Part shown: piece after piece, positions 2,095-4,546 of the stretch
Layout: each line of letters opens with the position of its first letter
Position numbering within the stretch: the first letter of the stretch is position 1
Program-made: the position numbers and the translations under genes
From: a virus
Direction: 5' to 3' (one strand)
DNA length: 11,944 bases
UHGV virus genome: UHGV-0306691
Notes under the pieces: model-generated
What the model was told of the DNA's origin: nothing
What the model saw: only the letters and a program-made list of their open reading frames with translations
Databases searched by the model: none

Positions 2095-2681
2095 GCGTTA
2101 GTTTCTCCACAACCAGAAGCAATCGACGCCACGACGCCCGGAGCTGCACACTCGCGGGCGTCATTACTTTCTGAAATGCAAAAAATTTTGTAGACCAGTG
2201 CTGCATGCTCCTGGAGCTTCGAAATTGAGAGATACAGTTCGTCGTTAATTGCTGTCTTCTCATGCGGTTCCACTACACCGTCTTCGATTGCTGAACGAAT
2301 CTGTCTGGAATAACTGCCGATCTGTTCAATGACTTCCAGCAGACGCTGGTTAATATCGGCGTTGTCCACATCCTCGACGTCAGGAAGAGACACAAAGACG
2401 CCATTTGCAGACTGCGCCACAGCGTCAGCAATGAAGTGAGTGCCACCAGCACGTTGCAAAATCATTGCCCATCCCAGCGGGAAAATCTGATCACCATCGG
2501 CACGAAGGCGGTTAAATAATGCGTTCTCTGTTACATCCAGCCAATCAGCTGCTTCAGCGTAACCACCCGGCAACGTTGCGATAGTTTTTCTGACAGCTTT
2601 CACGTACCACTCAGGCTGTTTTTCTACTTTCCAGTGATGCTTACCCACGGCTATCTCCTTAAAACTGTGGTTACTTTCCAT
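2091..2681 (-). CDS. CII-like / YdaT-family phage regulatory protein (196 aa)
   Basis: Immediately downstream of the cro-like gene with an 11-nt overlap, the position of cII in lambdoid phages and of ydaT after ydaS in Rac-type prophages. Family assignment is by context and general resemblance only. Confidence 0.45.
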
Positions 2682-2919
2682 CTGATAAGTCTTTAATCTT
2701 TTGAAAAATATCTGGACGTAATTTTTCTTTTGATACGCCAGTGGTCATTTCAATGAATATCGAAAGCTTTGCAGGGGGACGCTTTTCTCTGTTCAACCAG
2801 TTCCATACATGTTGTTGCTTTACTAAACGACCACTGCTGGCTGTGAGCTTCCGAGCCAATTCTGATTGACCACCAGCCAGAGCGATTGCCTCTGATAAGG
2901 CTAATTGCTCAGGTGTCAT
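2671..2919 (-). CDS. cro: Cro-like HTH DNA-binding protein (YdaS/Cro family), 82 aa
   Basis: Divergent from the cI-like gene across the operator region. AGGAG SD 6 nt upstream of ATG. Product contains IALAGGQSELARKL HTH-like segment and C-terminal LRPDIF motif typical of YdaS/Cro-like proteins as I recall them. Confidence 0.65.
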   Translation of the reverse strand: MTPEQLALSEAIALAGGQSELARKLTASSGRLVKQQHVWNWLNREKRPPAKLSIFIEMTTGVSKEKLRPDIFQKIKDLSDGK

Positions 2920-3056
2920 AGCTTTCTCCTATCTGTAAGTAGTAAAGTTGTTGATAACTTCGATTATACAACTACAACAACTTTTATCACAACTTTTAGA
3001 TGTTGGAAAGCTAAAACATAAAGTTGTAACCTCAATAAAAACGAGGGGGATAGGTT
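2920..3056. promoter_or_regulatory. OR-like divergent promoter/operator region between cro-like and cI-like genes
   Basis: Leftward promoter: perfect TATAAT on minus strand (complement of 2963-2968) with TTGTGA -35 at 18-nt spacing (complement of 2987-2992), about 37 nt upstream of the cro ATG. Repeated operator-like motifs: TAAAGTTGT at 2943-2951 and 3019-3027; AAGTTGTTGATAACTT (2945-2960, palindromic ends); ACAACTTTTAGATGTTG at 2989-3005. Confidence 0.55.
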
Positions 3057-3743
3057 GTGAAAACATTGGCAGATAGACTAAAAAGCGAAAGAGAAAAAGC
3101 AGGAATGAGTCAGGCGCAACTAGCTGAAAAAATTGGACTTTCACAACAATCCGTAGCAAAAATCGAGAATGGAGAAACTCAACAGCCTCGGAAAATTAAA
3201 GAGATTGCTAAAGTGTTAGGGGTTTCTCAAAAGTGGTTGCAATTGGGCATTGAGGATAACGCGTCTTTCCCAGACCTTGTTGTAAAGGAGGCTGAAAGTA
3301 CAGCATTAGATCCTGACATTTTTGCAAACATTCCTGTCCTGGATGTCGAGTTATCAGCGGGTAATGGATGTTTGGCTGAAATAGTTGAATCAACTGTAGA
3401 CTGGTTCCCGCTAAGAAGGATTGATTTAAGAAAAGCTGGTGTATGTGTCTCCAATGCAAAGATCGTAAAAATTTGGGGTAATAGTTTACTACCTGTACTT
3501 AACAATGGAGATTTTGTTGCTGTTGATGTTTCCCAAACAGTTCCTATTCGTGATGGGGATCTTTATGCTATACGTGATGGCGTATTACTTAGAGTTAAAA
3601 TATTGATCAATTTACCTGACGGTGGTCTGATTCTAAGAAGTTTCAATAAAGATGAGTATCCAGATGAAATACTCACCTTCGAAGATAGGCGTTCCAGAAT
3701 TCACGTTATAGGTAGAGTATTCTGGTCATCGCGCACTTGGTAA
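3057..3743 (+). CDS. cI: cI-like prophage repressor (N-terminal XRE-type HTH, C-terminal LexA/S24 peptidase-like autocleavage domain)
   Basis: 228 aa, GTG start after GAGGGGG. HTH segment MSQAQLAEKIGLSQQSVAKIENGE; C-terminal domain with G-N-S (GNSLLP) and downstream Lys (LRVKIL) in the arrangement of the S24 Ser/Lys dyad. Divergent from the cro-like gene. Confidence 0.85.
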   Translation: MKTLADRLKSEREKAGMSQAQLAEKIGLSQQSVAKIENGETQQPRKIKEIAKVLGVSQKWLQLGIEDNASFPDLVVKEAESTALDPDIFANIPVLDVELSAGNGCLAEIVESTVDWFPLRRIDLRKAGVCVSNAKIVKIWGNSLLPVLNNGDFVAVDVSQTVPIRDGDLYAIRDGVLLRVKILINLPDGGLILRSFNKDEYPDEILTFEDRRSRIHVIGRVFWSSRTW

Positions 3744-3801
3744 TGCATCAAAAAGCATTCCTTCAGAAATTTAGTTTCTATTATTATCCGCCTTTTCAAT
3801 C

Positions 3802-3840
3802 TTCCTTCCGTGATTTGAGAGTTTCCAATCACGGAAGGAA
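3802..3840. repeat. Perfect 14-bp inverted repeat (TTCCTTCCGTGATT / AATCACGGAAGGAA) with 11-nt loop, downstream of cI
   Basis: Arms 3802-3815 and 3827-3840, directly visible. No flanking T-tract on either strand, so not a canonical intrinsic terminator; could be a processing site, protein-binding site or structure-dependent terminator. Confidence 0.5.
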
Positions 3841-3929
3841 AGTATCCCTTGTGTAATTAAAAGCGCATCGTCCATACAACCTCCTTTTTTGATAATCCTT
3901 GCCCTCATTTCACGTCCGTCAAAACCACA

Positions 3930-3983
3930 TAAAGTTGTTGACAACAACCAAAACAACAACTAGATTACAACTTAAAGATGTTG
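3930..3983 (+). promoter_or_regulatory. OL/pL-like rightward promoter with operator motifs shared with OR
   Basis: TTGACA at 3938-3943, 17-nt spacer, TAGATT at 3961-3966. TAAAGTTGT (3930-3938) overlaps the -35; ACAACTTAAAGATGTTG (3967-3983) matches the OR copy at 2989-3005 in 16 of 17 positions. Placement downstream of cI, pointing into the early-left operon, mirrors lambda pL. Confidence 0.5.
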
Positions 3984-4076
3984 CAGTAACGAACAGGCAG
4001 GACGCCCACGAAGTAGCCGCCGGTGGCGTATGAATGACCGGATGATTCGTTAAATACTATGTGTAAGAGAGCGCAA

Positions 4077-4280
4077 ATGAACCGTTATTTCACATGCTCG
4101 TTTTGTGGCGCAAACGAGCTGCAGGCAAAAAAAATCATCGCCAAAGGCGGAAAAGATGAAGTTGCTATCTGCTCTGAGTGCGTAGTCTTGTGTGTCGGGG
4201 CATTAATCAATATCAGCACAACTATTCAGTTCACACCAAATGAGAATGCGCCTTTAGATGCGCGGAAATCTGGAGGTTAA
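4077..4280 (+). CDS. Small protein with ClpX-type C4 zinc-finger (ClpX N-terminal zinc-binding-domain-like), 67 aa
   Basis: CSFCG-x18-CSECVVLC matches the ClpX ZBD signature (E. coli ClpX: CSFCG...KLIAG...YICDECVDLC), including the K-[LI]-I-A-[GK] segment. ATG at 4077 preceded by AAGAGAG; first gene after the pL-like promoter. Confidence 0.6.
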   Translation: MNRYFTCSFCGANELQAKKIIAKGGKDEVAICSECVVLCVGALINISTTIQFTPNENAPLDARKSGG

Positions 4281-4369
4281 AGAACAAAATGAAAGTCCAG
4301 ATTTTAAACAATAACTGTGAAGTCGTTTGGGCGTAAAACATGACCGCGCGTAGACCAAGGGAGGAAAAA

Positions 4370-4546
4370 GTGGGAATAGTTAGAAATCAAGCAGATATAT
4401 TGAAAATCAGCTCTGAATTGCTTGGAGTTTTGAAAAGTGAGCTCACCGCACATGGCATCGAGCCCACTGACGAAAATTTAAGTTGGGTTTTGTCGATTAT
4501 TCAACAATCACTCAAGCCCAGCCTCAGCAAACTTTTTATCGAGTAG
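4370..4546 (+). CDS. Hypothetical small protein (58 aa, GTG start)
   Basis: GGGAGG SD 5 nt upstream of GTG 4370; the ATG at 4340 has no SD. Helical-looking product. 3' end overlaps a convergent minus-strand ORF by 39 nt. Confidence 0.3.
   Translation: MGIVRNQADILKISSELLGVLKSELTAHGIEPTDENLSWVLSIIQQSLKPSLSKLFIE

Follow-up and report, generated by a model that had tools for sequence, protein, structure and literature searches.

Predicted repressor operators related to those of phage 434 flank the cI-type gene of a lambdoid prophage

Introduction

The repressor of phage 434 reads bases 1–3 of its operator half-sites with Gln28, Gln29 and Ser30, and Arg43 lies at the minor groove, as is known from co-crystal work. 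The 434 operators are 14 bp long with conserved outer 4+4 bases (PMC1636474), and the six operators in the annotated phage 434 record are all of this length and have the form ACAA-N6-TTGT, one with ACAG for ACAA. In prophage CP-933P, the role of Cro was shown to be played by a YdaS-family protein, whose footprint overlaps that of the repressor (PMC8630535). Here, we analyze the immunity region of UHGV virus genome UHGV-0306691, in which a gene for a cI-type repressor is flanked by two clusters of short repeats. The stretch studied, called the window below, is 11,944 nucleotides long and is numbered from its first letter, 5' to 3'. The repeats are very probably repressor-binding sites that shut off two early promoters, as expected of an ordinary lambdoid immunity region. 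No description of their operator specificity was found in the sources searched; it is related to that of phage 434.

A 15-bp dyad occurs four times around the repressor gene

The gene context (repressor, cro, CII-like gene and an operon with xis and int) identifies the left cluster as the right operator region (OR) and the right cluster as the left operator region (OL), with the early left promoter (PL). OR lies between cro and cI and OL at PL, and both clusters overlap the promoters named in the original prediction, which had been made from the letters of the window. The two clusters were said to share AAGTTGT/ACAACTT half-sites, and all strings cited in support are present at the positions given for them. 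AAGTTGT occurs seven times in 11.9 kb, and six of these copies fall in the two clusters, which make up ~1.9% of the window (a binomial probability, calculated by hand, of ~3e-10). The element TAAAGTTGT is found at 2943, 3019 and 3930 only (three copies versus 0.10 expected; none of 200 shuffles reaches three).

A listing of all ACAAC and GTTGT elements defines the likely functional unit better. It is a 15-bp dyad, ACAAC-N5-GTTGT, with the ideal form ACAACTTWAAGTTGT, in which 7-bp half-sites surround one central base (ACAACTT-N-AAGTTGT); written as a synthetic site, the dyad is ACAACTTAAAGTTGT. The motif ACAACNNNNNGTTGT matches exactly four sites in 11.9 kb with up to one mismatch, all of them inside OR and OL, versus 0.40 expected, and four is reached in 0 of 200 shuffles. 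When all 5-mer dyads with gaps of 0–14 bp were enumerated without bias, ACAAC-N5-GTTGT ranked first, with four occurrences in OR and OL and none in the other 11.7 kb. Scans at two or three mismatches return matches at background level, and a pattern scan of the window at up to one mismatch shows no fifth dyad, for example beyond cro. The four dyads (OR-c, OR-a, OL-5 and OL-6; Table 1) lie over the predicted early right promoter (PR), the predicted repressor maintenance promoter (PRM) and PL, two per region rather than three.

The original prediction had also put forward a 17-bp element common to OR and OL. The 17-mer ACAACTTWWAGATGTTG is indeed present exactly at 2989–3005 and 3967–3983, but the likely functional unit within it is the 15-bp dyad: its last two bases are variable at OL and at OR are part of a conserved TTGGAA, the likely PRM -35. 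The copy of TAAAGTTGT at 2943, proposed as an operator element, exists but is a lone half-site that belongs to no dyad.

Several other candidate units were discarded. A 16-bp site CAAC-N8-GTTG has a right arm that is not conserved at OL in relatives. The 16-bp palindrome AAGTTGTTGATAACTT (2945–2960) is lost in the E. coli GF8 variant described below. In the perfect 15-bp everted palindrome GTTGTTGACAACAAC (3934–3948), only GTTGT and TGACA are conserved and the remainder is specific to the window. The 434-type 14-bp pattern ACAANNNNNNTTGT gives five matches at up to one mismatch versus 7.6 expected, none of which is credible as an operator.

Conservation of the predicted operators and the repressor

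Repressor homologues (46–99% identity) were found across Enterobacterales, and their loci were taken from species-representative genomes (37 loci) and from exact-protein look-ups (nine loci). Twenty-three close loci, in which the repressor is at least 57% identical (57–99%), come from E. coli, Citrobacter, Salmonella, Klebsiella, Serratia, Hafnia, Yersinia, Cronobacter, Plesiomonas, Morganella, Providencia and Proteus. OR-c, OL-5 and OL-6 are present at up to one mismatch in all 23 of them, and OR-a in 17. In these 17 loci OR-a starts 24 bp after OR-c; in six Providencia/Proteus loci its place is taken by AACACTTAAAGTTGT or AACACTTTAAGTTGT, which carry two mismatches and lie 25 bp after OR-c. 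The geometry is equally constant elsewhere, with OR-c at -65 to -76 from the cI start and OL-6 starting exactly 43 bp after OL-5 in 23/23 close loci. Almost no dyad matches occur outside the four positions in these loci, and the DNA between the operator sites diverges.

The way in which the sites vary is informative. OL-5 is a perfect ACAACATAAAGTTGT in the six Providencia/Proteus loci, and OL-6 reads ACAACTTAAAGRTGT in some lineages and ACACCTTAAAGTTGT in others, so that the perfect half changes side. Both the switch of sides and the presence of two perfect halves in Providencia OL-5 are predicted for a symmetric protein-binding site and speak against a simple common origin of OR and OL.

The repressor is conserved along with its presumed sites. 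Its recognition helix, SQQS[VI]xKIE, is conserved across 31 homologues, in all of which Gln30, Gln31, Lys35, Ser143 and Lys181 are invariant; the Ser-Ala-Gly motif (residues 100–102) is kept in most of them. Because the operator set is conserved with the repressor across many genera, it plausibly defines an immunity specificity, which makes the earlier suggestion to this effect a reasonable one. The cro-like protein is likewise retained, with orthologues carrying the helix KQQQ[VI]WNW in 23/23 close loci.

Some relatives show further peculiarities. In E. coli GF8 (a variant found in 48 E. coli genomes), the repressor is 93% identical and the same A-to-G change is seen at the positions equivalent to 3000 and 3978 of the window, in the weak halves of OR-c and OL-6, where it turns GATGT into GGTGT, the commoner form in other genera. 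Three Providencia loci (L008, L009 and L012) carry an extra one-mismatch dyad, ACAACTTT[TC]AATTGT, ~370 bp upstream of the cI start and past the cro 3' end, which could be a third operator region. A contig titled Pseudomonas lundensis I31 contains an Enterobacterales-type immunity region with a 69% identical repressor and an identical operator layout; the assembly may be mislabelled or contaminated, or the transfer may be real. Finally, a distant group (L016–L024) from Serratia oryzae, Budviciaceae, Leminorella, Pragia and Limnobaculum encodes a repressor that is ~47% identical. Perfect or one-mismatch ACAAC-N5-GTTGT dyads are found upstream of cI in six of these nine loci, and in the seven that were translated the divergent gene product is an unrelated 119-aa protein, not a YdaS-type Cro.

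Arrangement of predicted operators and promoters

PR, which reads leftward in the window, was found by a promoter scan with the perfect TATAAT (2968->2963) that had been noted earlier. By our own reading of the alignment, this position keeps TAnnnT in Enterobacteriaceae-type loci, with the variants TATAAT, TATTCT, TATACT, TATCAT, TACAAT, TATATT and TATGCT. PL reads rightward, and its -10, TAAATT or TAGATT in 20/23 loci, always follows the -35 by 17 bp. Its perfect TTGACA is overlapped by an operator copy, as had been stated, in that its first base is common to the TAAAGTTGT copy at 3930–3938. The predicted PRM lies in the 137-bp spacer between cI and cro. OR-c adjoins its -35, as OR2 does in phage 434, and its -10 keeps TAnnnT in 23/23 loci (TAACCT, TAATCT, TAGGCT, TAGTCT, TAATGT and TAAAAT, again in our reading of the alignment). 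OR2, the pRM -35, OR3 and the pRM -10 of phage 434 are annotated in this sequence, each abutting the next, and the order OR-c, TTGGAA, OR-a, TAACCT matches it. From this order, 2989–3003 is read as OR2-like and 3013–3027 as OR3-like, with functions to match being proposed for them. Transcription is predicted to start at ~2956 (- strand) from PR, 3039 (+) from PRM and 3973 (+) from PL.

Table 1. Coordinates of genes, predicted regulatory sites and leader RNA stems in the window
Feature	Position	Strand	Description
cro-like gene	2671..2919	-	82 aa; first in PR operon; Pfam YdaS_toxin, E 3.6e-14
Lone AAGTTGT (GTTGT at 2947)	2945..2951	+	about +5 to +10 of predicted PR transcript
PR -10, TATAAT	2963..2968	-	promoter scan
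Lone ACAAC	2968..2972	+	abuts PR -10, inside PR spacer; -21 from OR-c in 15/23 loci
Lone ACAACTT	2977..2983	+	inside PR spacer; -12 from OR-c in 17/23 loci
PR -35 alternative, GTGATA	2985-2990	-	promoter scan; 16-bp spacer
PR -35, TTGTGA	2987..2992	-	promoter scan; 18-bp spacer; overlaps strong half of OR-c
OR-c (OR2-like)	2989..3003	+	ACAACTTTTAGATGT; dyad with 1 mismatch
Probable PRM -35, TTGGAA	3003..3008	+	TTGGAA or TTGGAT in 23/23 loci
OR-a (OR3-like)	3013..3027	+	AAAACATAAAGTTGT; dyad with 1 mismatch; within PRM spacer
Probable PRM -10, TAACCT	3027..3032	+	directly after OR-a; 18 bp after TTGGAA
GTTGT overlapping cI GTG start codon (GTTGTG)	3054..3058	+	+63 to +65 from OR-c in 14/23 loci
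cI-type repressor gene	3057..3743	+	228 aa; GTG start; Pfam HTH_3, E 1.2e-15; Peptidase_S24, E 9.5e-14
OL-5	3924..3938	+	ACCACATAAAGTTGT; dyad with 1 mismatch; upstream of PL -35, one-base overlap
PL -35, TTGACA	3938..3943	+	promoter scan; TTGACA in 18/23 loci, one-base variants in 5
Lone ACAAC	3956..3960	+	abuts PL -10; -11/-12 from OL-6 in 20/23 loci
PL -10, TAGATT	3961..3966	+	promoter scan; TAAATT or TAGATT in 20/23 loci
OL-6	3967..3981	+	ACAACTTAAAGATGT; dyad with 1 mismatch; directly after PL -10, covers predicted PL start
Leader closing stem	3989-3993/4046-4050	+	
Leader inner hairpin	4020-4024/4037-4041	+	

This arrangement suggests the following mode of action, in which binding, order of occupancy, activation and start sites are derived from motifs, statistics, conservation, geometry and protein homology. 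A dimer of the cI-type repressor probably binds the 15-bp dyads (consensus ACAAC-TTWAA-GTTGT), two at OR and two at OL. At OL, PL would lie between two dimers, the first placed against the -35 and the second extending over the predicted start from immediately downstream of the -10, and their presence would block the early left operon that ends in xis and int. At OR, a dimer on OR-c would overlap the PR -35 and so repress cro, the CII-like ymfL and the genes beyond. OR-c is also directly upstream of the weak predicted cI promoter (TTGGAA-18-TAACCT), a position suited to activation of PRM as in 434 and lambda, while occupation of OR-a, in the PRM spacer, by Cro or by repressor at high levels would silence PRM. 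The lone half-sites within PR and PL probably contribute weak occupancy of a cooperative kind. Repression would be relieved when RecA stimulates self-cleavage at the Ala-Gly site, with Ser143 and Lys181 as the Ser/Lys dyad.

Several observations weigh against this picture. Neither OR nor OL contains a third full dyad at up to two mismatches, where lambda and 434 have three operators per region. A simple promoter scan of the window does not call PRM, which is why PRM is described here as a weak promoter. The OR2 of 434 is found in the PR spacer, but OR-c is located upstream of and across the PR -35, so that repression of PR may follow a different logic here. Lastly, simple binding of a dimer to a dyad does not account for the conserved lone half-sites, some of which form 9-bp and 12-bp direct repeats.

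Lone half-sites and alternative readings

The lone half-sites are perfect copies that have no partner 10 bp away and are conserved across genera. Measured from the first base of OR-c, the GTTGT at 2947 is located at -41 to -44 in 20/23 loci (most often -42) and at -32 in two, and it is absent in one; the 10 bp to the left of the lone AAGTTGT that contains it are not conserved. The half-site at -21 is replaced by one at -33 in Providencia/Proteus and that at -12 by one at -9 in the Providencia loci. The offsets are roughly multiples of a helical turn, and the core of PR or PL contains all of the sites. Further ACAAC copies at 3941, 3944 and 3953 are not conserved. The GTTGT on the cI start codon is kept in its 14 loci although the N-terminal residues of the protein differ. 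These half-sites may be weak operators that are filled cooperatively, or they may be Cro sites.

A more elaborate switch can be imagined, which we regard as possible but doubtful. In it, each region would contain two full dyads and, in addition, a series of single half-sites about one helical turn apart (0, -9/-12, -21, -33 and -42 from the strong half of the OR2-like site), and one DNA face would be filled either by a repressor oligomer with flexibly tethered DNA-binding domains or by Cro. With one specificity maintained from E. coli to Proteus, such prophages would confer mutual immunity across genera.

The most serious alternative is that another protein, such as a host factor, the CII-like YmfL or the YdaS-type Cro, is what mainly binds the sites, or the lone half-sites at any rate, and that cI recognizes something else or only a subset of them. 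This is unlikely, but the 9-bp and 12-bp direct repeats of half-sites are not what a symmetric dimer prefers, and the Cro helix KQQQ[VI]WNW is conserved together with the sites. In CP-933P, moreover, direct and inverted repeats are both conserved in the region footprinted by PaaR2 and YdaS (PMC8630535). What argues for the repressor is that the distant group keeps perfect dyads and lone GTTGT sites despite its unrelated divergent gene. The dyads of this group indicate that the motif tracks cI rather than Cro, and the persistence of the lone GTTGT sites alongside a gene for an unrelated 119-aa product mildly favors cI over Cro for the half-sites as well. In addition, the QQS with which the recognition helix begins and the ACA in the half-site fit the known features of 434.

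That the repressor binds a longer site of 17–18 bp, ACAAC-N8-GTTGN, is very unlikely. Such a site would have the length of the P22 operator, which is 18 bp, and ACAAC-N8-GTTGT at up to one mismatch does occur three times in OR and OL and nowhere else in the window. However, relatives have lost the outer GTTG of OL-6 (GGTGTTA, GATGTTC and GTTGTTA), while the 15-bp register is present in 23/23 loci, and the extra TG at OR belongs to the conserved TTGGAA.

It is more improbable still that the shared strings have no role in binding and stem from common descent of OR and OL or from gene conversion between them. Long identical runs, such as ACATAAAGTTGT at 3016 and 3927, and the same A-to-G change in both 17-mers of GF8 are compatible with such an origin. 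Against it, conservation from E. coli to Proteus is confined to the promoter hexamers and the positions of the dyads, while the intervening DNA diverges and repressor identity drops to 57%; the motifs were looked for in homologous immunity regions and are present there.

A role of the inverted repeats as hairpins in RNA or single-stranded DNA is just as improbable, for although 2944–2953 and 2975–2984 form a perfect 10-nt inverted repeat with an apparently compensatory change in GF8, its arms straddle the PR -10 and predicted start, so that no single predicted transcript contains both, other lineages do not retain the extended complementarity, and no Rfam family matches.

Binding of the cI-type repressor to the dyads is the most probable reading.

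Prophage context

The window corresponds to the early region of an SfV/e14/CPS-53-type lambdoid prophage. The repressor and cro-like genes are divergent and separated by a short spacer with operators and promoters. The repressor has the domains expected of the lambdoid type, a helix-turn-helix and an S24 self-cleaving domain with an Ala-Gly site and a Ser/Lys dyad. A CII-like YmfL, identified with Pfam, is encoded after cro, and to the right of OL there are genes for a ClpX-zinc-finger protein, yfdP/Q/R-like genes, an Ea22-like gene, xis and int. The immunity region of E. coli K-15KW01 (RefSeq) is 98–99% identical and is annotated with the same layout. The OR segment is present in 72 of 5,426 complete E. 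coli genomes, and no complete E. coli genome exceeds 98.6% identity over window positions 2600–4300.

The segment between cI and OL (3744–3925) differs from that of the relatives, for which 2625–3515 of the GF8 locus and loci L041–L049 serve as comparison. Almost all of them have an antisense gene there for a BRCT-domain protein (~293 aa), which overlaps the cI 3' end and is deleted in the window. All that is retained is a remnant of its start, with a minus-strand ATG at 3875 (MDDAL... versus MEDAL... in GF8), and a strong hairpin (3802–3840, z -4.2).

A structured element in the PL leader

A 62-nt structured RNA-like element (3989–4050, + strand) is found between OL-6 and the gene for the ClpX-zinc-finger protein (ATG at 4077). 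Its core, AGGCAGGACGCCCACGAAGTAGC, is invariant. In 40 distinct sequences, nine of the 14 base pairs change on both sides, and the covariation score of 0.564 compares to 0.147 in shuffles (0 of 500). The core is present in 53 phage records, among them SfV, SfII, ST64B, mEp460 and ZF40, none of which annotates it as a feature, and also in at least 120 contigs of IMG/VR. An Rfam scan of 2500–4400 returned no family, only chance matches to a hairpin at 3799–3843.

A covariance model finds a single copy of the element in each of the searched sources that carry it (the window, L001, L041 and SfV) and no copy downstream of PR. By analogy with nut or put, the element may be a cis-acting antitermination or anti-pausing signal. 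It was considered as a put of the HK022 type, and this identification was dropped since the covariance model finds nothing in HK022. One Klebsiella locus (L043, ~4240–4255) lacks the element and has CGCTCTTTAACAA in its PL leader instead, which we take to resemble the boxA consensus. This replacement is a hint that a nut site can take the place of the element and vice versa. The leader element may deserve more attention than the operators.

Comparison with known systems

None of the searched phage records contains the same repressor. The best match to cI is 45% identical, has SQPAIQK as its helix and is associated with different operators. The closest sequenced phage repressors are those of Stx1 phages and of S.Kent 1-2-1, which also differ in recognition helix and operators. 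The operator strings gave nothing relevant in a full-text library with few subscription journals, so that an earlier description is possible.

CP-933P resembles the window in having a YdaS-family protein in the Cro position, divergent PR and PRM, and some repeats conserved in one half only. Its repressor is PaaR2, and its 18-bp palindromes (consensus GTTTAGTAA) differ from the operators described here. The CP-933P region belongs to a cryptic prophage that bears a toxin–antitoxin system (PaaR2 / YdaS / YdaT).

The similarity to lambda is in the overall plan, namely divergent cI and cro with PR and PRM, a CII-like gene after cro and a PL operon ending in xis and int. The 24 bp between the centers of OR-c and OR-a equal the OR1–OR2 spacing of lambda, and the site at about -43 of the predicted PRM corresponds to lambda OR2. 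In sequence and length (17 bp), the lambda operators are unrelated to the 15-bp dyad. The cI mRNA of lambda transcribed from PRM is leaderless, whereas the one predicted here has a leader of ~17 nt with a Shine-Dalgarno sequence. There is no rexAB in the window, and relatives carry the antisense BRCT-domain gene at the rexAB position.

Phage 434 is the closest in protein–DNA recognition. The operators of the window had been thought to be unlike those of 434, and this is correct only as far as their length (15 versus 14 bp) is concerned: the N-terminal domain of the repressor is homologous to that of the 434 repressor (PDB id 1per; phmmer E 1e-15, 45% identity over 66 aa), and the half-site ACAAC begins with the ACAA of 434. 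The equivalents of Gln28, Gln29, Ser30, which form the QQS start of the 434 recognition helix, and of Arg43 are kept, Gln33 is replaced by Lys35, and the fifth base of the half-site is C. Both systems also have a self-cleaving S24 domain at the C-terminus of the repressor and, at PL, a second cluster of operators. They differ in that 434 has three dyads per region and the window two full dyads with lone half-sites, that PR is displaced by ~18 bp relative to the OR2-like site, that PL is bracketed by two sites 43 bp apart, and that the Cro belongs to the YdaS family and not to that of 434 Cro. Given the different length and fifth base, homoimmunity with 434 is unlikely. Judged by its sequence, the system is a 434 relative with a predicted specificity of its own, outside the 434 immunity group.

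The analysis thus defines in silico an operator set and a likely immunity specificity for a prophage family, and ACAACNNNNNGTTGT can be used as a motif for annotating OR and OL in these prophages. The repressor and its sites appear to be a natural variant of the 434 pair, in which the same residues would read ACA, Gln33 is changed to Lys, position 5 is C and the center is longer by one base pair. Such a variant could help studies of specificity and indirect readout.

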